Of a DNA stretch of 31,799 nucleotides, positions 21,811 through 31,799 are shown in pieces. The notes below the pieces were generated by a model. The model was not told where the DNA came from. It saw only the letters and a program-made list of their open reading frames with translations, and did no database searches. Position numbers and translations under genes: made by a program. Origin of the DNA: Candidatus Thorarchaeota archaeon SMTZ1-45. Lineage in GTDB: Archaea; Asgardarchaeota; Thorarchaeia; Thorarchaeales; Thorarchaeaceae. Positions within the stretch are counted from its first letter, which is position 1; each line of letters begins with the position of its first letter. Where the stretch lies: contig LRSL01000107.1 in the NCBI GenBank assembly GCA_001563335.1, positions 1 through 31,799 on the forward strand. Direction: 5' to 3'.

Positions 21811-24800
21811 CTTGCTAGAGTTGCTTTGAATCAACCTTGGTCCTAGGACATCATGGAATAGCTTGACATATGCTGCGTCCTCCGATATAATGGATAGTTG
21901 ATTATCTGAACCTCTTGACCCTCCAACGAGAATCTCACGATTATCGATGATTGTGAGAAGCATTGGTGTCTTGGTCTGCCAAATACGCCATCCATCCAAT
22001 GCTTCAAGAGCTGGGTCTAAGTCTTCTGTTTCAGGGATAATGAGTACTCTTCGCTTGGGGGTCTTTATCCGAGCTAGTTTCTTTAAATCTAGGCAAGAAA
22101 TTTCGTGAACTGATATAACCACGGATTCTAGAGCTCTATTGGCCATATCACCGATATGAGTGCATGCTTCTTCAGTTCCACTAAGGTACCAAGTTCTTTT
22201 AGTTGGAACGTCTAACAGTTTTTCACTTGCAAGATGAATTGCGTTGAGTGTGTCAACTGTCTTGTTTGTCAAAGAAGTAACTCCAGTAATTGTATTATAG
22301 ACATTCTCATTTAATGTCACTAAATCCTTCTTTTGTGTATTCGACCATCTTCTGAGTGATTTATCCACCTGATCACTAAACTTTGAAAGGACATCGCTTC
22401 GTGCTTGCCGAAGTTCTGTGAGTTCCTCACTGGATCGATTTCTTGCATCAGTGACAGTTTCAGTTAGTTTAAGATTCTTGGCCGCTACATCAGATTGGAA
22501 TTTGTCGATTAATGTAGAGGATTGAGTACTAAGTTGAGTCTTCAGCTCTAATCCAATTGTTTCCAATTTTCTTGCTGCTTGTTGATTTGTGAGAATCGCG
22601 CTTTCTTGTACAGCTTTGATTGCTTCATTTCGCTTCTCTGTGGTTTGGATCGAGGATTGCTCAAGCAAGTTTCGAAATTCTTCCGATGCGGACTCGTATG
22701 TTCGCTTAAACTCAGTAAAGGAAGAGGCTAATTTTTCGGTCACCATACTATAATGCTGATTTGTTTCTTCAACAAGCCCCTCATCCACCTCTGCGATTTT
22801 CTCTGCCATAGAACTTGGCAATGAAGTGAATGCATTATTTCCTTTTGCCAGTGAAGTAGCGCAACTACCTCCAAAATCGTCAATTCTAGACCGAATTTTC
22901 GATTCTGCATCTTCGAAGAGTGTTGTCGTAATCTCAGCAAATTTCGCAATGTCAGCATCTCCACGTTCAGTAATGGATACCGAAGCTTCTTCACCGGTTT
23001 TTTGAAGGTCTCTTTGCAATAAGGTGAGTTCATTACCTAGTTTTGTGCCAAAGGTTTCTAGAGATGTCGATACATTAGCTACTGTTGAATCAACCCATAT
23101 TGATGCAGCGTCAAACGCCTGAGTGACTTCTGCCCTTCTAGCCTCAACAGCTTGAATAACTTCCTCTTTTGCAGAATTTCTACTTTTCACACCACTAGTT
23201 TCACGTTCAGATAACTCTGAATGGAATTCTTCTATTTGTTGAGTTGAAGCTTTTACACGTTTCGTAATTAGTTGATTTATCTTTTTACTTGTATCAGCCA
23301 AATAGCGTTGCTTGATATCTCTCTGTGCTGAAACAAATGAATCAGCCGCACTTTTCGCAGCGTTAGTACTCTTCTCTAATGCATCGTTTGTTACTGTCTT
23401 AACATTGCTCAACCTTTCAGTTATTGTGTCTCGTGCACCATCAATTGTAATGTTGAATTCTTGAGTTACTTGATCAAAATTCTCTGTAAATTGTTTGATG
23501 ATGCCAGTTTCCATATTTCGTAGATTGTCCTCTGTGCTAACTATTGACTGTTCGAGTTTAGCAAGGGCATTAGCCATACTTTCTGACATCTCATATCTCT
23601 TTTGCACTGCAAGTTCATCCAAAGATTGCTTGACTGAGGCTACAGAGGAAGCGACTTCATCGATTTTGAGTCCAAGCTCTGCTGAATACTCTTGTTGCAA
23701 TTTCGAAGAGTCTTCCTTGAGACTTGTCATCTCAGATTTCATTGTGTTTTTGAATTCAGTATGAGTTGATGCGATTAGATCACGAGCTTCAACAGTCTGG
23801 CTAGATAGAAGACCATTGAAGGTGGCTTCCATACTTTGAGTGAGAGTAATGAATTGGCGTGTTATGTCTTCTAGGTGAGTATGAAATTCTTCACGAATGC
23901 CCAAGGTATGTTGATCAATGCGATCGACTTGTTGCTTGATTATGACATCAATTTCAGCATCTATCTTATCAGCTTGAGATGTAATTGCAGTAACACTTTG
24001 AGTCATTCGTTTATCGAGTCGGTCTCGCAGGCCTTCATAGAGCTTCTTAGAATCAAGAACTTGTTTCTCTGTTTTTGTAGCAAAACTGTTGATCAACTCT
24101 TCCAATGTTGAACCTACACTTGATTCAAAATCATGTGTTGTCTTCTTGATGGAAGTAATCAATGCCTCATTCTTTGTAGATGTGGTCTTTATGATTGAGC
24201 TGAATGCAGATTTCAATCTACTATTCATTGCATCAGCAAGAGTATTCAACTCACTTGATTCAGTATCGAGAATATTAGAAATGTCCTCAGAAGTTGACTT
24301 CAAGTTTGACTCGATGGATTTCAGAGTACCTTGTACCCATTTGTCAAGTTCTGAGTTAAGAGTTTTTGAAGCTTCATCACATCCAGCTTGCTCAGTTTTA
24401 TTCTGTTTTTGTAAAAGATCAAGAACCAAGGCACGTGTTTCAGCAAGTGTTGTTTCAGATTCGCTTCCAAGACTTGTTGCAAAATCCTGAACCTGATCAT
24501 ATTCCTCACTGATTGATGCATTTAGTTTTTCAATATGTGAAGTGAGTGTGTTTTTCAATACTTCTATGTAATTCGAGTCTGTGGAAGCGACTTGATTGAG
24601 TTGGGAGGTCACAGACTGGGATGCCACATCCATTAAGCTAGAAACTTCTGCCTTCCAGTCGTCAATATCTCCACTAACTGACTCTACAAATTCTGCCGCT
24701 GCGAATATCTTGTTCTTCGAAAAGTCACCAAATTCAGCAGGGATTTTTTTGGTTTGATCTAAAACTTCTCGGAGAGATGCCTGACCAGTCAAGTATGTCT

Positions 24801-25704
24801 GACTAAGTTCACCTTCAAGATGAGCAAGGAGTTGAGTGAGATCTTCTGACACTGAATTGAGAATCTCGACACCATGATCCGAAGCAGAGGAGGTCATCGA
24901 GGTCAGTGCCTTTGTCATTCCTTGAGTGATGTTTTGCAGTGCACTAGAAGATGTTTCTAGCGCTTTATTAACTGCATTACGTGCAACTTCAATGAGAGCT
25001 TGTGCTCTTGTTTCAAACTCAGCAATAGAGGTCAGTGTTGTTTTCCTTTCGACTTTTAACCATTTGTCAAATTCACGGGAAATACGCTTGACATCTTTTT
25101 CCAGCTGAACCTGACTCTTGTCGATTTCACCCTGTAGTTCTGTAAGTTTAGCACCCAATCTGTTGTCTAATGATGTGTCAAGTTTGTTCATGATATCTTC
25201 AACTTCTTCAGAAACAGACCCCATAACTGCACTAGCAGTAGTTTTTACCTGATCAATACGGCCACTGACAAGCTCTAACATATCATCTTCGTATTTCGTG
25301 AGAGATTTTCTGATCGTTTCCAATGATTTAGCTTGGGAGCTGAGAACCTTCTCTATATTATCATCAATCTCTTCAGACTTGGAGGTAAAGGTCTTCTCAG
25401 ATAATTCAATCAGTTTCCTTATCTCATTCAGGCTTGTCGATAGCTCTTCTGATAGTGCTAGATTTGGTGGTACTGAACGATATACTGGTACTATACCATC
25501 AATTTCCTTTATCAGACCCTTCTTCACAAGTCGTTTTAGTGCTTTCTCAACTGTGGATAGGTTCTCACCGGACATAATAGAAACCCCACCCGCAGTCATG
25601 TTTCCACCAAGGTATACTGGGAGTATAGTCTTGGACTCAACATCTGTGATGTCAAGATTCTTTTTCAAAACGGATACTACTTCCGTAACTGCTTTATCAC
25701 TCAT
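21799..25704 (-). CDS. Giant (1301 aa) protein: TrmB-like winged HTH, about 1100-aa amphipathic helical insert, TrmB effector/PLD-like C-domain
   Basis: N-term MTAGGVSIMSG..LSTVEKALKRLVKKGLIKEIDGIVPVYRSVPP; Pro-poor helical middle; C-term RALESVVIS...LLTIIDNREILVGG. Confidence 0.85.
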   Translation of the reverse strand: MSDKAVTEVVSVLKKNLDITDVESKTILPVYLGGNMTAGGVSIMSGENLSTVEKALKRLVKKGLIKEIDGIVPVYRSVPPNLALSEELSTSLNEIRKLIELSEKTFTSKSEEIDDNIEKVLSSQAKSLETIRKSLTKYEDDMLELVSGRIDQVKTTASAVMGSVSEEVEDIMNKLDTSLDNRLGAKLTELQGEIDKSQVQLEKDVKRISREFDKWLKVERKTTLTSIAEFETRAQALIEVARNAVNKALETSSSALQNITQGMTKALTSMTSSASDHGVEILNSVSEDLTQLLAHLEGELSQTYLTGQASLREVLDQTKKIPAEFGDFSKNKIFAAAEFVESVSGDIDDWKAEVSSLMDVASQSVTSQLNQVASTDSNYIEVLKNTLTSHIEKLNASISEEYDQVQDFATSLGSESETTLAETRALVLDLLQKQNKTEQAGCDEASKTLNSELDKWVQGTLKSIESNLKSTSEDISNILDTESSELNTLADAMNSRLKSAFSSIIKTTSTKNEALITSIKKTTHDFESSVGSTLEELINSFATKTEKQVLDSKKLYEGLRDRLDKRMTQSVTAITSQADKIDAEIDVIIKQQVDRIDQHTLGIREEFHTHLEDITRQFITLTQSMEATFNGLLSSQTVEARDLIASTHTEFKNTMKSEMTSLKEDSSKLQQEYSAELGLKIDEVASSVASVKQSLDELAVQKRYEMSESMANALAKLEQSIVSTEDNLRNMETGIIKQFTENFDQVTQEFNITIDGARDTITERLSNVKTVTNDALEKSTNAAKSAADSFVSAQRDIKQRYLADTSKKINQLITKRVKASTQQIEEFHSELSERETSGVKSRNSAKEEVIQAVEARRAEVTQAFDAASIWVDSTVANVSTSLETFGTKLGNELTLLQRDLQKTGEEASVSITERGDADIAKFAEITTTLFEDAESKIRSRIDDFGGSCATSLAKGNNAFTSLPSSMAEKIAEVDEGLVEETNQHYSMVTEKLASSFTEFKRTYESASEEFRNLLEQSSIQTTEKRNEAIKAVQESAILTNQQAARKLETIGLELKTQLSTQSSTLIDKFQSDVAAKNLKLTETVTDARNRSSEELTELRQARSDVLSKFSDQVDKSLRRWSNTQKKDLVTLNENVYNTITGVTSLTNKTVDTLNAIHLASEKLLDVPTKRTWYLSGTEEACTHIGDMANRALESVVISVHEISCLDLKKLARIKTPKRRVLIIPETEDLDPALEALDGWRIWQTKTPMLLTIIDNREILVGGSRGSDNQLSIISEDAAYVKLFHDVLGPRLIQSNSSKLQI

Positions 25705-25759
25705 TTAGGCATCCCACCACTGACGAGATTCGCCAGACCTCAATATGGCAAATGTCAGT

Positions 25760-26617
25760 CTACTCTTGCTTCTCAAACTTTGATACACGTATGAATAGGT
25801 CTCTCAATTGACCAACCTCAAGAGATGAAGAATCATCTCCAGCAATTACCTCTGCATGGATTTTGACTAAATCTTCAATCTCGGATGTATAGACTGCATC
25901 AAAGCCTTTTAGAGACCCTGCTTTCAATTGACTCTTTACGCTGCTTAAGCTATGTCCCTCAATTTCAATAGAGAGGAGCCACCAGTTTATAGTCAGGTCA
26001 GTAACAATAGTTTTCAAACCATAATAGTTGGAGAATATCTGGCAATAGAGATTGAAAACCTCAAAATTCTCTAATCGATCATTTCGTGGATTGAGTGTGA
26101 CAATGCCTCTCGCAAAATCGAAGTGGAATATCAGACTATCCCCTTTGACTATCAGAACATTCTCTTCATGTGCTGACGAGAAGCCTTTCCATTCTTTCTT
26201 AAATTTGGTTGTGAAGTGACGAATAGAACTCACACCAAGTGTTGAAAGCAAATCCTTGATGGGAATTCGTCTATCAGTCATTTCCCGTCCTTTCTTGTCG
26301 AGAATGAACCGTCGAATCTGCTCAAGGTGTTGGCTATAACAAAACGCTGGGAGGTCTTGTGGATTGACACCTATCTCAATAAGTGCATTGAGAAAATTCC
26401 TATTCATGCATGCTGGTCTCACAGTGCAACCAAGTCTATCCTCTTGACATACTGTGCACTTCTTCTCATGTAACTCAATTAGTTCAAACGCCAATTGATT
26501 GTCAGCCGGAGTGTCAAGAAGCTCCATCCTTGAGGCAAGCTCTTGTTTATGTTTCTTGAGGTTCATAATCGTCAAATCCACTGGAAGGTTATTTCTGAAA
26601 GAGATGGACCAATCCAA
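25760..26617 (-). CDS. Hypothetical protein with N-terminal His/Cys cluster
   Basis: HEKKCTVCQEDRLGCTVRPAC...FCY; start uncertain (TTG 26617 or a downstream ATG). Confidence 0.8.
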   Translation of the reverse strand: MDWSISFRNNLPVDLTIMNLKKHKQELASRMELLDTPADNQLAFELIELHEKKCTVCQEDRLGCTVRPACMNRNFLNALIEIGVNPQDLPAFCYSQHLEQIRRFILDKKGREMTDRRIPIKDLLSTLGVSSIRHFTTKFKKEWKGFSSAHEENVLIVKGDSLIFHFDFARGIVTLNPRNDRLENFEVFNLYCQIFSNYYGLKTIVTDLTINWWLLSIEIEGHSLSSVKSQLKAGSLKGFDAVYTSEIEDLVKIHAEVIAGDDSSSLEVGQLRDLFIRVSKFEKQE

Positions 26618-26729
26618 CTCTATGGTAATAACTGAATCACTGAAAGTGAGTCATGTTGCGCATTGTGGTTTGACAGAGATAAACCTTGTTTTATCAAACC
26701 ATATTGATCGCACCAAAAATCAACAGAAT

Positions 26730-27623
26730 TCAATTATTATTAGCCATTTCTTTGAGTTTACTCTTCCATGATTTTATTTCTCGACTTAGACTCGCGATAT
26801 CATTCTCATTCAAAGTAGCAGTGGGGGGATAAGACTTCAGTTCACGAGCACGTTTTCCAAATTGAAAAAGGACTGGAGTATGTCCCTTAATCATTGTAGT
26901 AAGATTATCACGTACTTCTTCAAGTGCCTCTGCCATTTCTGTTGCTTCAGTCTGCGGCACAACTAAACTCATCAAGTTGTCCATTAATGCGTCTATTGTT
27001 GAAGGTAGACTAGTCTTATCTGGAGGCTTAACCTTGGGTTTCTCCTCAATTTCTTCCTCCCTAGAGGGTTTCTTATCGGGTTTCGAAGGTTCAGCAGATT
27101 TTGCATCTTGAGCTTGAATGAAGTCAGAGAGCAAATCGACAGCTTCTGTGACTTTATCGATTGCTAGATTATATTTCCGCTCAATATCATCCAGCTGGCG
27201 TACAATTATGCCTACTATCTCCTTGGTTTCCTCAAACTGTCCAGCGAGATCTTGAACCTTATCCTCCATTGTTGACAGACCAGCAATGTAATTCTGAAGA
27301 TCCTCGAGTTTCTTTGGTATTGCATCACTATCAGCTAAGGACACCAAAATATCGTCTAACTTCTTTATTATGACTGTAGATTCTTTTGAATCCACAACTT
27401 CTTTGACCGCTGAGTCAATGTCTGTGACTGATTTTGCTATGTCATCAAGTTTCTTTGAATCAATTCCCTTCAGAGACTTAGTCAAATCATCTATTTTCTT
27501 ATCCATATCCGGCAAAGAATTGAACTCTTTTAGCTCCGCATGTAGAGTAGCCAGTTCATCAGACAGCTTGTCTACTTTCTCTTGGATTTCCTCAATAACT
27601 GCATCTATCTTCTCTGTGACCAT
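26730..27623 (-). CDS. Coiled-coil protein with P/K/E linker and C-terminal helical domain
   Basis: Heptad-like pattern over about the first 170 aa; AEPSKPDKKPSREEE linker. Confidence 0.85.
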   Translation of the reverse strand: MVTEKIDAVIEEIQEKVDKLSDELATLHAELKEFNSLPDMDKKIDDLTKSLKGIDSKKLDDIAKSVTDIDSAVKEVVDSKESTVIIKKLDDILVSLADSDAIPKKLEDLQNYIAGLSTMEDKVQDLAGQFEETKEIVGIIVRQLDDIERKYNLAIDKVTEAVDLLSDFIQAQDAKSAEPSKPDKKPSREEEIEEKPKVKPPDKTSLPSTIDALMDNLMSLVVPQTEATEMAEALEEVRDNLTTMIKGHTPVLFQFGKRARELKSYPPTATLNENDIASLSREIKSWKSKLKEMANNN

Positions 27624-27749
27624 AGCATCCCCTACTGAGGTGGCGATAATATCCGTTCTGTGTCAGGAAGCGTAATTAGCCTTTCGGGAATGTAGTCCCT
27701 GCATTTAGAATGACATATTTCTGTGAAGATAGCAGTTCCTAGCACAGAA

Positions 27750-28583
27750 TTATGCATTCTTGGCGCGAATTATAGCGATATTTGCATCTTCAAGCATTGG
27801 AAGGATATGTGCTTTATTCTCAGCATTCATACCTTTCCAGTCTATGATAGCAGATACAATCGGGTTAGTTGAACGAGAAAGCATCTGATCCAAAACATCA
27901 ACTGTCAGGTCATTAATTGCATATTTAGGAGCCATATGGCCTATCTTGTAGTTGCGGTCAAGTACAAGCTTGTTGAATTTACTGGCATAGTGAGTGCCAC
28001 CAAAACCTATCACGGCATCGCCAGAGAGTGGTTCATGAACGCAAGCCATAACCGCAGCAGCTACAGCTCTGGCACCACCCTGATGAGTCCAATGTTTTTC
28101 TGAGCTTCCAAGTTCCACAAACACAAGAGGTGTCTTCATTGATGTAGGACCATGGTGTGTCACTTCGAGAGAAACATCGAATTCGTCCAATCCGGTTTTA
28201 TTTCGTTCTTCATATAATCTCTTGAGAGCAGCAGAAACAAGTGAAGGAGCTGAAACAGAAAGCTGATGTGGCTCACCACCAAAGAGAGCTTCAGAACCAA
28301 GATTCCCAGTACTATGAACTAGTAAGGCGGGCTTTTCTGATTCAGCACGATGTCTTGAGCAAAATATGAAGACCTCCGTTTCAAAATAAGATTCAAGATG
28401 ATCACAATGAATCATGTTCCTGGTTGTTGTTATTAGTTGGACATCATCGCCTATTGAAAAAATAGGATTTCCTTCAAAATCTTCATCAGATTGAGTAAAG
28501 TCATATTCATCAATAAGAATGCCTTTTATTGTGATGCTAGCTATATCCTGCTCTGAAGTGACTAAGACCCTCAAGACCTCCAT
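27750..28583 (-). CDS. dtdA: D-aminoacyl-tRNA deacylase (archaeal DTD2/GEK1 family)
   Basis: DIAS, SRHRAES, LLVHSTGN, EVTHHGP, FVELGS...W, GFGGTHY, GHMAPKY, IDWKG. Confidence 0.95.
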   Translation of the reverse strand: MEVLRVLVTSEQDIASITIKGILIDEYDFTQSDEDFEGNPIFSIGDDVQLITTTRNMIHCDHLESYFETEVFIFCSRHRAESEKPALLVHSTGNLGSEALFGGEPHQLSVSAPSLVSAALKRLYEERNKTGLDEFDVSLEVTHHGPTSMKTPLVFVELGSSEKHWTHQGGARAVAAAVMACVHEPLSGDAVIGFGGTHYASKFNKLVLDRNYKIGHMAPKYAINDLTVDVLDQMLSRSTNPIVSAIIDWKGMNAENKAHILPMLEDANIAIIRAKNA

Positions 28584-28593
28584 CCCCAGCTCA

Positions 28594-29823
28594 TTAGACT
28601 TCGCACATCTCGAGTAATGGTTCTAAACTTACTTCAATCTGAATCGTGACCTTCTCATTAAAGGCAGAAAGAATCTCGGACTCTATGCGACTCTTGAACT
28701 CATTTACCTTGTCGATCTGTCTTTTGATATCATCTCTAATTCGCAGCATATCGTTACGATGATATTCCAAATTCTTTTTTGCTTCATTCAGAGCATCTTG
28801 GAGTTGGCTATTAGTTGAATAGACATCAGACCCAGCGTAAGTATGCCGCTTATTCTCTATCTCTTTTGCTTGGTTTTGGAGCTTTTGCAATCCGCCATTC
28901 TGAATCGCTATTACTTCTTCAATAGCCCTTCTGGCAAGACGGTCTTTAAGTGGCAATTTTCCTCTCTCGATGGCTTCCTGCAACCCAGCTAATCCTTCAT
29001 TCAGTACAGGATAACCTTCTTGTTCTTCTACAATTGCTCTATAGGGATCCTCAAAATAATCAGTCAATGCTTTCTGACCCGCAGGGCTCACTCGTACACC
29101 GGTGTCGTGCTGGAAGAATTTCTTTACCTGTTTCTTCAAGGGATTGAGTTTCATTCTCAGAAGACTGCCAATGTGTTCAGCTTGTTCATCAAGATTAAGA
29201 AGTTCTGCGACATTTGATGTTTCAGTGAATTCACCATATTTTGTCCTTGCTGAGTCATATTCAGTCCGAGCAGTTTGAATCTTCTGGCGAACTTGGCGTA
29301 TCTGTTCTTCAAATATTTCCTTACTAAAGGTCAAATCGTGGAGGGTATCAATGCGACCTCCAATCCGTTCTAAATCTTTAACCCAACTGAATTCATACAA
29401 TAGTTTGCCTATCTTGTTCATTTCCCTAGCAAGTTCCTTCATATAGGTGTCAAGAGATTTGATTACATTCTTGTATCGTTTATCCATCCTTCGTATCCAT
29501 CGGGCACCTGCTCCCCATAATTCTTGTATGAAGCGTTGGGTCTCATTCTGCATTGCTTCTGTGTTCTCATATGTTATCTCTTTATCAACATAGAAGTCAG
29601 AAACAATCTCCCCAATTTTTTGTGCGAATCTTGCCGCAATGCTTCCAGACTCGAGTTCCTCATCTTCTTCATCTTTGAACTCCTTTGTTAATTGCTCAAT
29701 GTCCTTTAGAGCAGTTTCAACAATTTTATAGCTCTTCTCAGCTTGCTTGATGAAGTCTTTGGATTTGTTTCTAAGCTGCTTTCTATACCATTTTTGAAGT
29801 TGTTCGACATTGAGGTTTGTCAT
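28594..29823 (-). CDS. Hypothetical long helical/coiled-coil protein
   Basis: About 409 aa, charged amphipathic helices, no Walker motifs; GGGTG RBS favours ATG 29823. Confidence 0.85.
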   Translation of the reverse strand: MTNLNVEQLQKWYRKQLRNKSKDFIKQAEKSYKIVETALKDIEQLTKEFKDEEDEELESGSIAARFAQKIGEIVSDFYVDKEITYENTEAMQNETQRFIQELWGAGARWIRRMDKRYKNVIKSLDTYMKELAREMNKIGKLLYEFSWVKDLERIGGRIDTLHDLTFSKEIFEEQIRQVRQKIQTARTEYDSARTKYGEFTETSNVAELLNLDEQAEHIGSLLRMKLNPLKKQVKKFFQHDTGVRVSPAGQKALTDYFEDPYRAIVEEQEGYPVLNEGLAGLQEAIERGKLPLKDRLARRAIEEVIAIQNGGLQKLQNQAKEIENKRHTYAGSDVYSTNSQLQDALNEAKKNLEYHRNDMLRIRDDIKRQIDKVNEFKSRIESEILSAFNEKVTIQIEVSLEPLLEMCEV

Positions 29824-29958
29824 GTGAAAACGCACCCAGATGTGTCACGGAATTGTGAGTGGTTTATCAACTTTATGAAGCATGAAACACTGAATTATAT
29901 CATGATGTTTATATCAGGAGGCACATATCTTTCAGTAGCATAGGTAGCGTGAATGCTG

Positions 29959-30762
29959 ATGTCTGAGACCTTGGAAACCGGCAACCGGAAGCCGAGGCTG
30001 GATCTCACATACTGTGTCGAGTGTGTAACCTGAGGACGAGGTAGCCTGGGTTTCTTTATGAAGCGCCTCAGTCTGATAGATTCCCGCGGAAAGGATCGTC
30101 TGCTACTTCGGAATCCTGCAGGGTACAAAGGCGGATTCTGGTTGACGTACTATGTAGATGAAATGTTCTGCATGGCCGCGTCTACCGAGAATGACTCCTT
30201 CTCTGTGGTCAATGAGGAAACTGGAAAAGGGATGTTGGAAGTATCCCTTAGCCATTCACCTATGTTGGATGGAGTGCCAGCGATAAGAACAGACATTCAG
30301 GTCTGGAGTCACAATAAACCGATCATGCTGATACGACACAAGACTACGAATGTAGCGGAACAAATCATCAAGAATATGAAACTCTATGAGTTCATGGATT
30401 TTGATGTGGGAGGTCCAGCTAGCTATAAAGACGATAAGGGTGTATACGATCAAAATAATGGCCTTATGTTGGTGTATGATGGAAACCCCTTACTTGTAGC
30501 GCTAGTGTCTCTTCCTCAACCAGACCGATGGGAAATAGCACCACCCACGAAGCTAAAAATCAGTGAAGAATACCCAGATCTACAGAATAACCTTGAGCTC
30601 GGACCAATGGACGTCGCGATTGGACTTCAGTGGAACCTTGGAAACTTGAATCCTGGAAACAGTTCAATTGTCGATATTGTCATTGCATCAGCGACCAGTC
30701 TTGAAGAGATCAAAGCACTCATCCCTGATGGATGGAAGCTTTTCAACAAGAAGATTCGATGA
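29959..30762 (+). CDS. Putative selenoprotein (267 aa): N-terminal CxxCxxU motif plus predicted beta-sandwich domain
   Basis: In frame with ORF 30058-30762: MSETLETGNRKPRLDLTYCVECVT[TGA 30031-30033]GRGSLGFFMKRLSL...; SECIS at the 3' end; alternative start ATG 29953. Confidence 0.85.
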
Positions 30763-30800
30763 AGCAGGAACGTAAAGCAAGGCAGTTCTTGTTGAGAACT
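30752..30800 (+). promoter_or_regulatory. Eukaryote-type SECIS element
   Basis: UUC-GAU-GA / GA-GAA kink-turn; AUGA 30759-30762, 11 nt paired with 30782-30793 (one bulged A), unpaired AAA 30774-30776. Confidence 0.85.
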
Positions 30801-30837
30801 GGGAAGCACCCAATGTCTTCTGTTGAAAGCCTATCGG

Positions 30838-30869
30838 AAAAAAGAGAGAAGGGGACATAGAAGTCCCCT
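30838..30869 (-). terminator. Stem-loop plus U tract after the wHTH gene
   Basis: Minus strand AGGGGAC-TTCTAT-GTCCCCT followed by TCTCTCTTTTTT. Confidence 0.75.
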
Positions 30870-30872
30870 ATT

Positions 30873-31313
30873 CTAAAGATTATCCTCTAGGTAGTCTGCG
30901 AGCATCCGGGCCTCATTCGTTAAACAGGCAAGCTGTCCCTTACTACTAAGATTTCCACCAGTTAGCAGTCCCATGTCCTTCAAAGAGCGTAAGTTCCATT
31001 TCACAGTACTATATGGAACAGTACTTCGACGCGAAACTTGGTCTGCAAGAGCTGTCAGTGTTAGTTCATGAAACTTTAACAGCTTATGACTCATTCTCAG
31101 TACTTGCTTCTGAGTATCGCTCAACCTAGCTTCAGCTAATCTGAAGAACGATGCAGCAAGACTTTGAAAAGAAGTAGTCGAGACCTTACGGTCACTTAAG
31201 AACACATTCACCTCGTGACCTAATTTGGCAGTCACCTGCTGGATGGTAGTCACCTTTTGTGTTCGAGACCCGATATCGATGGGCAGTCGATGTTGTTTCA
31301 GTACCCATTGCAT
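30873..31313 (-). CDS. Winged helix-turn-helix protein
   Basis: LSDTQKQVL...TLTALADQVSRRSTVPYSTVKWNLRSLKDMGLL...LTNEARML; GAGGTGA RBS. Confidence 0.8.
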   Translation of the reverse strand: MQWVLKQHRLPIDIGSRTQKVTTIQQVTAKLGHEVNVFLSDRKVSTTSFQSLAASFFRLAEARLSDTQKQVLRMSHKLLKFHELTLTALADQVSRRSTVPYSTVKWNLRSLKDMGLLTGGNLSSKGQLACLTNEARMLADYLEDNL

Positions 31314-31400: not shown

Positions 31401-31799
31401 CTATTCAAGATCAGGCATCTCAAGACCCATTCTTCTCAACTTACCAAATCCTTGGCTAAAGAGACTCATGTGATGTCGAATACTCTCTTCAGTGTCTGCT
31501 AGATCTGTTAGAAAAGGCATTATTTCCTCAAAACCACCAGATTCGTGTTCTTCTTTCATAGAGTGTATCGTATCGCTCATTCCAAGCATTTCATCAGCTA
31601 TAACCTGCGTTAAATCAATCATTGATTGAACAACTTCACGGGCTGTTGGATCTGGCATATATGGCAGGAAATCCTCGAAGGCAACTCCAGCATTCCTGCA
31701 CTTATCAACTCGACCAGGGATGATCTCATCATACATTGATTGCATCCAACTAATACGTTCCATACTGGTAAGGTCCCTTAGATTCTCAAGAGAGAAATA
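31401..31799 (-). CDS. Hypothetical helical protein, probably 5'-truncated by the window edge
   Basis: Frame stays open from ATG 31763 to the window end (YFSLENLRDLTS-MERISW...). Confidence 0.75.
   Translation of the reverse strand, partial: YFSLENLRDLTSMERISWMQSMYDEIIPGRVDKCRNAGVAFEDFLPYMPDPTAREVVQSMIDLTQVIADEMLGMSDTIHSMKEEHESGGFEEIMPFLTDLADTEESIRHHMSLFSQGFGKLRRMGLEMPDLE

Follow-up and report, generated by a model that had tools for sequence, protein, structure and literature searches.

The gene at positions 29959-30762 on the forward strand of contig LRSL01000107.1 from Candidatus Thorarchaeota archaeon SMTZ1-45 (assembly GCA_001563335.1) very probably encodes a single selenoprotein of 267 residues, in which the UGA codon at 30031-30033 is predicted to be decoded as selenocysteine (Sec) via a selenocysteine insertion sequence (SECIS) element at 30755-30798. 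The window analysed here is the whole stretch from position 1 to position 31,799 of the forward strand of this contig, and all positions follow its numbering. The standard annotation (translation table 11) calls an open reading frame (ORF) of 234 amino acids (30058-30762) that begins at an internal ATG. Comparison of orthologous loci indicates that the internal UGA of this mis-annotated gene almost certainly encodes selenocysteine. The features that carry the argument are the following:

29959..30762, + strand: predicted full selenoprotein coding sequence (CDS) of 267 codons, one of them for Sec, and the UGA stop; orthologs align from residue 1-2 to residue 266-267.
30022..30033, + strand: the C22-V-T-U25 motif, with the Cys codon at 30022-30024 and the putative Sec codon, TGA, at 30031-30033.
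30058..30060, + strand: the ATG of the standard annotation (234-aa ORF), read here as an internal Met codon; ATG in only 8 of 25 orthologs.
30755..30798, + strand: predicted SECIS of the Asgard eukaryote-like type I, with covariation in 25 orthologs and agreement with the criteria of Huang 2024 (PMC11227280).

On the forward strand, a TGA codon (29950-29952) is followed by ATG 29953, a CTG codon, ATG 29959 and then a frame that contains a single TGA, at 30031-30033, and ends with the UGA stop at 30760-30762. The read-through product from ATG 29959 comprises 267 amino acids and includes C19, C22 and U25. The same coordinates, ORF and residues were given in an earlier note on this DNA, and all are reproduced here. 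As for the start, for which that note offered ATG 29959 or ATG 29953, comparison of the orthologous loci singles out 29959 as the conserved one, and 29953 is not conserved.

When the read-through product was searched against all six frames of 61 related genomes, 33 gave matches, and from these 25 full-length loci were oriented and extended. All 25 align from a conserved Met-Ser-Glu start, with identity to the window sequence down to 38%. A search of this kind had been proposed in the earlier note as a check on the upstream extension and on the codon at position 25, and it reveals conservation on both sides of that codon, with TGA at the identical position in 24 of the 25 loci and TGT (Cys) in the remaining one (L028 from genome G025). 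A profile built from 23 ortholog sequences and searched in 400 genomes of the Asgard phylum matched 204 of them, including 69 of the 85 other genomes of the taxonomic family of the window (hereafter f1; f9, f16, f28, f29 and f30 denote other Asgard families). Among the f1 matches, 61 span the whole protein; 60 of these contain exactly one TGA and no other stop, and the G025 sequence contains none. For 36 of these full-length sequences only the number of stops is known, the codon position having been inspected in the 25 loci. Contigs from two other public runs cover positions 30031-30033 without a difference at the TGA, and because these independent contigs keep the codon, a sequencing error at this site is excluded. 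The same contigs contain 7 nearby variants, 6 of which are synonymous in the read-through frame (codons read by hand).

In the ortholog alignment, conservation is highest over the 24 residues that precede the UGA, and the invariant positions include T7, G8, P12-D15, Y18, E21 and U25. Over the 22 codons upstream of the UGA, 524 codon comparisons to the window gave 234 identical, 154 synonymous and 136 non-synonymous pairs, and the differences at codon positions 1, 2 and 3 upstream of the TGA number 126, 67 and 218, respectively. Ahead of the TGA, the sequence changes in the manner of a protein-coding frame. The in-frame residues between the TGA and Met34 are conserved as well. The codon at 30058 is ATG in 8 of the 25 loci and ATA, ATC, TTC, CTC or CTG in the other 17, so that translation from this position is impossible for most of the orthologs. 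The CxxCxxU motif of the earlier note is retained in part: C22-x-x-U25 is conserved, with Cys at position -3 relative to Sec in 22 of 23 aligned Thor sequences, but C19 is confined to close relatives of the window sequence and is replaced by N, E, T, A or S in the other orthologs.

The second line of evidence comes from the 3' end of the gene. The minimum-energy fold of 30745-30815 has the order UUC / GAUGA / 11 paired nucleotides / loop from AAA / GA / GAA, so that the fold elements described for this region in the earlier note are recovered. The lower stem (30755-30757/30796-30798) is followed by unpaired G-A-U and then G-A (30758-30762), of which the AUGA at 30759-30762 includes the stop codon; after one mostly unpaired position comes an upper stem of 8 bp (30764-30771/30785-30792), capped by an apical loop of 13 nt (30772-30784) that begins with GUAAAGC and ends with GCA, with the AAA at 30774-30776, and the 3' side is closed by N-G-A at 30793-30795, with the GA at 30794-30795. 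When the 25 gene ends are aligned, no sequence departs from the UGA of the AUGA or from the A of the 3' GA, the G of the latter is kept in at least 90% of them, and the AAA at the start of the loop is found in 25 of 25. The gene's final stop is TGA in 24 of the 25 loci. A strict scan identifies a perfect 8-bp stem in the window and in 16 of the 25 orthologs. Over the 25 sequences, 88.6% of the stem cells are paired, versus 38-54% when the partners are slid by 1-3 columns; two-sided changes occupy 93 cells versus 36 expected, and 0 of 500 shuffles reach the observed score. Compensatory changes occur at 10 of the 11 upper-helix pairs. The "exactly 11 paired" nucleotides of the earlier note hold for the fold of the window sequence but not for the family, given that the first of these pairs is a standard pair in only 7 of the 25 sequences; the supported stem consists of 8 bp and two apical pairs.

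The C-G pair that closes the lower stem beside the tandem G-A is C-G in all 25 sequences. Its C opens the last sense codon, and the residue encoded there varies (Arg, Gln or Pro). That the base is invariant although the amino acid is not points to a constraint at the RNA level and to a CDS whose end is shaped by RNA structure. In the window (30757-30762), this C is paired with the invariant G located after the 3' GA. Such an arrangement is the textbook layout of a kink-turn.

The hairpin agrees with the type I criteria of Huang 2024 (PMC11227280), namely a GA...[G/A]A core, an upper stem of 7-15 bp in which no more than 2 mismatches occur, and a loop of 8-20 nt that begins with unpaired adenines. 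It shares with the Asgard type I SECIS elements, as described in the portions of PMC4989117 (as lokiSECIS) and PMC11227280 drawn on here, the AUGA...GA kink-turn core, an upper stem of 8-9 bp and a 13-nt loop starting with GUAAA; for the Thor frhA SECIS, a loop start of G[U/G]AAA is given (Huang 2024, PMC11227280). Furthermore, the window element lies at the very end of the CDS, with the stop UGA forming part of the AUGA, as in the Loki VhuU.1 gene, where the AUGA doubles as the UGA stop and a UGA so near the SECIS was argued not to be recodable (Mariotti 2016, PMC4989117). It differs from the Asgard type I elements in a family-specific loop (GUAAAGC...GCA, conserved in 21 of 24 Sec-form sequences as read by eye), in a second conserved hairpin 2 nt downstream and in the location of the stop in some family members: in the Thor ortholog L035 and in f16, the stop is UAA inside the apical loop instead of UGA within the AUGA. 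The hairpin of the Cys form in G025 keeps AUGA...GA, and its loop is changed. Inspection of the fold and the alignment detects no GAA_A asymmetric bulge, the feature of euryarchaeal SECIS elements, and the stem is AU/GU-rich. The label "eukaryote-type SECIS" in the earlier note is therefore apt in the sense of the Asgard type I, eukaryotic SECIS-like model of Huang 2024 but does not extend to the eukaryotic SECIS models of Rfam, which are unmatched; the Loki elements likewise showed no significant match to eukaryotic SECIS models (Mariotti 2016, PMC4989117).

The genome of the window (G000; 87.7% complete) encodes Sec machinery. On contig C29, a compact cluster (24054-28294) contains a PSTK-like gene, tRNA-Sec, SepSecS and SelB side by side. 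The tRNA-Sec scores 60.2 bits, above the cut-off, SepSecS 468.4 bits and SelB 302.8 bits; the PSTK-like match, which adjoins tRNA-Sec, scores 128.5 bits, below the curated cut-off of 290.5. A SelD gene with one in-frame TGA is located on contig C75. Thus, the machinery for which the earlier note recommended a search is all found, PSTK with a match below cut-off and SelD in a Sec-containing form. In addition, a small VhuU-like ORF with an in-frame TGA is present on the minus strand of contig C57, downstream of a NiFe hydrogenase large-subunit gene (about 22174-23274). This ORF contains the motif C-D-C-U-x-x-C, and its TGA stop lies within the AUGA of a SECIS-like hairpin that continues with a 9-bp stem and an A-rich loop. 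It is a second selenoprotein gene of this genome with the same overlap of stop and SECIS. The FlpD/VhuD-type genes (10 matches) and the NiFe large subunits contain no in-frame stops in their matched parts, and the 3' region of SelD shows no type I hairpin of the kind found in the window gene.

The distribution within f1 follows that of the machinery. The 86 genomes compared are related and incomplete metagenome-assembled genomes, so that the counts are descriptive and do not amount to a statistical test. SepSecS is present in 73 of the 86, and 65 of these 73 carry a TGA-containing copy of the gene (59 full-length and 6 as pieces at contig ends); of the 13 that lack SepSecS, G385 (65% complete) is the only one with an intact TGA form. 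In two genomes without SepSecS, G013 (93% complete) and G020 (90%), a true SelD is missing as well, and the tRNA-Sec-like matches are below threshold (46.0 and 37.6 bits, respectively). The G013 copy of the gene has an internal deletion of about 130 codons and a C-terminal frameshift, and the G020 copy consists of the last 72 codons only. In both genomes, the weak tRNA-Sec-like match is located at a similar distance from the same SelD-like paralog, and SepSecS was not found; the Sec cluster looks to be in decay there.

The family extends beyond Thor-type genomes. Reading through 29 loci fetched from other Asgard families gave the following picture:

f9, 18 loci: TGA in 16 at the corresponding N-terminal position and AGA in 2 (G264 and G235), in each of which the N-terminus is disrupted; a SECIS-like hairpin of the Loki type lies 2-32 nt past the stop in 18 of 18.
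f16, 3 loci: C-x-x-U in 3; hairpin in 2 of 2 with 3' sequence, where it overlaps the end of the CDS and its apical loop contains the UAA stop.
f30, 2 loci: C-x-x-U in 2; hairpin in 0 of 2.
f28, 1 locus: C-x-x-U, in a longer fused ORF.
f29, 5 loci: CxxC in 5, with no TGA; hairpin in 0 of 5.

The hairpin counts of f9 and f16 versus f29 imply that Sec genes possess the RNA element and Cys genes do not, f30 excepted. In f9, the TGA lies about 13 codons after a strong GGAGGT ribosome-binding site. In f9 loci such as L094, L101, L108 and L113, GGAGGT is located about 40 nt upstream of the TGA and is followed after 8-11 nt by ATA-GTA, with GTG or TTG in other genera, and L108 has an in-frame TAA two codons before the ATA; the start codon in f9 may be non-standard, e.g., ATA. 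The f28 homolog (L112 from G179) is the N-terminal part of an ORF of more than 600 codons and is encoded near a HypD hydrogenase-maturation gene.

In public databases, a profile search of 1.84 billion representatives yields 115 matches, of which the close ones are truncated records of 220-238 aa, and all 103 public proteins found in another search are 128-238 aa long. The gene is truncated in each of these 103 records, and all cluster members are named "hypothetical protein". Homology over residues ~30-265 extends to more distant proteins, about 250-320 aa in length (hhalign probability 100%, E = 5.8e-39). In a single MAFFT run, C22-x-x-U25 of the Thor proteins aligns with the CxxC of those distant homologs that have the N-terminus, and in the same register Cys occupies the Sec position in P0124, P0141, P0123, P0159 and P0121. 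One public metagenome record, P0111 (119 aa), has W at the Sec position, most likely the product of a gene caller using a TGA=Trp code.

These observations are best compatible with the following mechanism. Translation would start at ATG 29959, and the UGA at 30031-30033 would be decoded by Sec-tRNA(Sec) with the archaeal SelB/EFsec, under the direction of the kink-turn SECIS hairpin that lies 728 nt further downstream (30755-30798). Co-transcription of the SECIS with the gene is assumed from its position, given that the element overlaps the stop codon. The UGA stop within the AUGA is expected to terminate translation all the same, probably because it is too close to, or inside, the SECIS, which is the explanation that Mariotti 2016 (PMC4989117) offers for Loki VhuU.1.

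Several observations weigh against this reading. Sec insertion itself is deduced from sequence comparison. An Rfam scan of 29500-31300 at E-values up to 10 identifies no SECIS family and returns three chance-level matches only. The fold energy does not stand out (z = -1.33, with 24 of 200 shuffles equally stable), and a strict AUGA-stem-AAA-GA descriptor has 5 matches in the genome versus 3 in the reversed genome. A covariance model (R1) built from 24 orthologous hairpins assigns 61.1 bits to the window element and finds no other SECIS in the genome, the next matches having E-values of 4 and 6, so that the element is family-specific in sequence. In f30, the SECIS-like descriptor matches 0 of 2 Sec forms. 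Two f9 loci (L103 from G264 and L104 from G235) have AGA (Arg) at the site and a disrupted N-terminus and yet keep the SECIS-like hairpin and SepSecS; they represent either recent losses of Sec or variants that do without it. The Cys form in G025 occurs in a genome that retains a Sec-type SelD, so that this Sec-to-Cys change is not explained by loss of the machinery; similarly, the Cys forms of f29 and the two Arg forms of f9 come from genomes with SepSecS (5 of 5 tested), and machinery loss does not account for them either. The case for the SECIS rests on covariation, position and context, given the unremarkable single-sequence statistics; it is the comparison across genomes, with its conserved TGA codon and covariation, and not the fold of one sequence, that argues against a chance hairpin. 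The descriptor was rejected as evidence of a SECIS on its own, 3 of its 5 matches being inside ordinary coding sequence, and R1 was likewise rejected as a general detector of Thor SECIS elements, as it finds only its own element in the genome.

With respect to function, Sec25 would be part of an E-C-x-x-U-G turn flanked by two beta-strand-like segments, at the N-terminal end of a probably beta-rich, uncharacterised protein. The C-terminal ~150 residues (about 105-260) match an unnamed domain that is located N-terminal to Transglut_N and the transglutaminase core (E-values from 1e-15 to 1e-4), and in P0122, P0135 and P0136 the matched part is immediately followed by Transglut_N according to Pfam. 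The proteins with this domain are 400-4000 residues long and match the window protein in that domain only, for which there is no Pfam model. The arrangement C-x-x-U, with Sec second, after a beta-strand-like segment and before a Gly, is shared with redox selenoproteins such as SelW, SelT and SelH, and the window motif is C-x-x-U where the Loki Prx-like proteins have UxxC. The window protein differs from the thioredoxin-like and Rdx CxxU proteins in having no Pfam match, in that the motif is located 19-25 residues from the N-terminus of a ~240-residue domain of another kind, and in that its f9 homologs usually lack the Cys at -3 and conserve a C-terminal Cys instead. Specifically, the Thor proteins have Cys at -3 (in the 22 of 23 mentioned above) and no C-terminal Cys; in f9, the -3 Cys is mostly missing and a Cys is found within the last 10 residues in 18 of 18 proteins; the C-terminal Cys is present also in f29 (5 of 5) and f30 (2 of 2); and f16 has the -3 Cys and no C-terminal Cys. 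A movable partner of an invariant Sec or Cys is the behaviour of resolving cysteines in thiol-dependent redox enzymes. Because the second Cys varies in position between lineages in this complementary way, a catalytic redox role is favoured: Sec25 would act as the catalytic residue and would form a selenenylsulfide with a resolving Cys, which Thor-type proteins have at -3 and most Loki-type proteins of f9 have at their very C-terminal end.

Two observations count against the redox role. The Thor ortholog L035 contains Sec and is devoid of Cys, and the sequence searches of Pfam, NCBIfam and the Protein Data Bank (PDB) gave no match to a fold or family that would support any enzymology. Pfam yields 0 families at E-values up to 1, with no thioredoxin-fold, Rdx or peroxiredoxin family among them, an NCBIfam search returns nothing meaningful, and the profile of distant homologs finds nothing in PDB below E = 0.5. 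The only PDB profile match, to the Cys-rich insert of aIF2-gamma and the next strand, has E = 0.03, and homology to aIF2-gamma was rejected in view of this marginal score and the differing fold context.

The main functional rival, which we consider rather unlikely, accepts the selenoprotein and takes the (C)xxU/CxxC turn to be a metal-binding knuckle, e.g., a ligand of Zn, Fe or Ni or a sensor, instead of a redox centre. The C-x-x-C/U-G turn is reminiscent of the knuckles of rubredoxins and zinc ribbons, and Sec serves as a metal ligand in NiFeSe hydrogenases and formate dehydrogenases. Compatible with this possibility are also the CxxCxxC of some distant homologs (P0124, P0141 and P0123), the alignment of the motif with the Cys-rich insert in the weak aIF2-gamma match and the adjacency of one f28 homolog to HypD. 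However, there are only one or two conserved thiol or selenol residues, too few for a mononuclear Cys4-type site, and L035, with its Sec and no Cys, is at odds with a metal knuckle as well. Moreover, the shift of the second Cys between -3 and the C-terminal tail is typical of resolving cysteines, not of ligands.

Far less probable is the alternative that read-through of the UGA depends on a near-cognate or suppressor tRNA (for Trp, Cys or Arg) and that the hairpin is a terminator or stability element. The location of the hairpin suits a terminator, Arg (AGA) occupies the site in two f9 loci, and P0111 displays W there, although the genetic code used by the gene caller is the more likely reason for the latter. 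Yet the same gene ends in TGA in 24 of the 25 loci, which makes TGA a normal stop in these genomes, and the hairpin contains the kink-turn AUGA/GA core, the AAA of Asgard SECIS elements and the invariant closing C-G. In addition, it is found with none of the 5 Cys genes of f29 versus all 18 loci of f9, and the TGA forms in f1 track the presence of SepSecS. Weakest of all, and hardly credible, is the view that TGA 30031 is a true stop, either of a 24-codon upstream ORF, with ATG 30058 as the start of a second protein of 234 residues, or within a pseudogene: it agrees with the standard annotation of the 234-aa ORF and with the truncation (128-238 aa) of all public protein records found, but not with the 17 of 25 orthologs that lack ATG 30058, the in-frame conservation up to Met34, the ortholog with TGT in place of TGA or the single TGA kept in 60 of 61 sequences down to 38% identity, which is unlike a pseudogene, the genuinely broken copies of G013 and G020 looking different.

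The predicted selenoprotein belongs to a new family that uses the known Asgard Sec system. Seven selenoprotein families have been reported in Asgard archaea, all inherited from or shared with other prokaryotes: SelD, FrhA/VhuU, HdrA, FrhD/VhuD, Prx-like, an AhpF-N-terminal homolog and DsbA-like (Huang 2024, PMC11227280). According to the portions of that paper considered here, the search covered more than 400 Asgard genomes and employed only previously known selenoprotein families. Earlier, five selenoprotein families were described in Lokiarchaeota, and a SECIS-first search gave no further candidate (Mariotti 2016, PMC4989117, in the parts covered). In the parts consulted, a 2026 review repeats the same seven families, and a 2022 review mentions that Thorarchaeota may have unknown selenoproteins. 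A full-text literature search (sources PMC11227280, PMC4989117, PMC13188914, PMC9723677 and PMC9312934, drawn on in part) detected no description of the window family, the supplementary tables (Huang 2024 S3-S5 and Mariotti 2016 S1) being places where candidates may be listed. The window gene shares with the seven families the Sec machinery, the SECIS type and the existence of Cys-containing homologs, and it differs from them in that the protein has no sequence relation to them in Pfam or NCBIfam. The proposal of an undescribed family in the earlier note thus stands: there is no relative in Pfam, NCBIfam or PDB, and the protein is not among the seven Asgard families of Huang 2024, the supplementary lists lying outside this comparison.

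This family would rank among the more widespread Asgard selenoproteins, with members in most f1 genomes and Sec homologs in several other Asgard families. It would also provide a well-covarying series of SECIS elements, Thor-type and Loki-type, on one orthologous gene, which could be useful with respect to the origin of the eukaryotic SECIS. In f9 and f29, a Ras-family small-GTPase gene is located directly upstream on the same strand in 23 of 23 loci (within L090-L114). Where the full gene was fetched (L092), the GTPase contains an N-terminal Roadblock/LC7 domain; the gap is about 25 nt in that f29 locus and is longer and AT-rich in f9. There is no Ras-like GTPase on the contig of the window, and the f9/f29 linkage is not valid for it. 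One could speculate, and we hold this to be quite improbable, that the window gene is the founding example of an Asgard-wide selenoprotein family (204 of the 400 genomes), with a catalytic N-terminal Sec and a resolving Cys that shifts between lineages, serving a eukaryote-signature small-GTPase module as a selenium-dependent regulator or redox partner.

In the window, both adjoining genes are on the opposite strand, so that the selenoprotein gene stands alone on the forward strand. The upstream neighbour (28594-29835, minus strand) encodes a coiled-coil protein of 413 aa without a Pfam family, and the downstream neighbours, also on the opposite strand, are a 146-aa TrmB-like winged-helix protein and a 120-aa ORF. 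The gene order in f1 is fixed: D-aminoacyl-tRNA deacylase, the 413-aa coiled-coil gene, the selenoprotein gene, the TrmB-like gene and the 120-aa ORF. The coiled-coil and TrmB-like neighbours are present at every f1 locus whose fetched flanks reach them, and the two outer genes are missed at a few. The coiled-coil protein, which is divergently transcribed, shows 58-87% identity across all sampled f1 genera, above the identity of the selenoprotein itself. Two smaller features flank the selenoprotein gene:

29943..29952, + strand: putative ribosome-binding stretch, GGTA..GTGA(TC), 7 nt upstream of the conserved start.
30800..30812, + strand: second small conserved hairpin with a 4-bp stem and a 5-nt loop, followed by a pyrimidine-rich stretch; supported by covariation.

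The first of these is found at a constant distance before the start ATG in most of 23 orthologous loci and presumably acts as a Shine-Dalgarno site. The second hairpin starts 2 nt after the lower stem of the SECIS, with 95.9% of the cells paired and two-sided changes at 2 of the 4 pairs. It is not a general motif of the genome, with 4 strict matches in the whole genome, and could be a terminator, a kink-turn helper or a protein-binding site. By eye, a small hairpin just after the SECIS is apparently present also in the f9 homologs and in the VhuU-like gene of the same genome.

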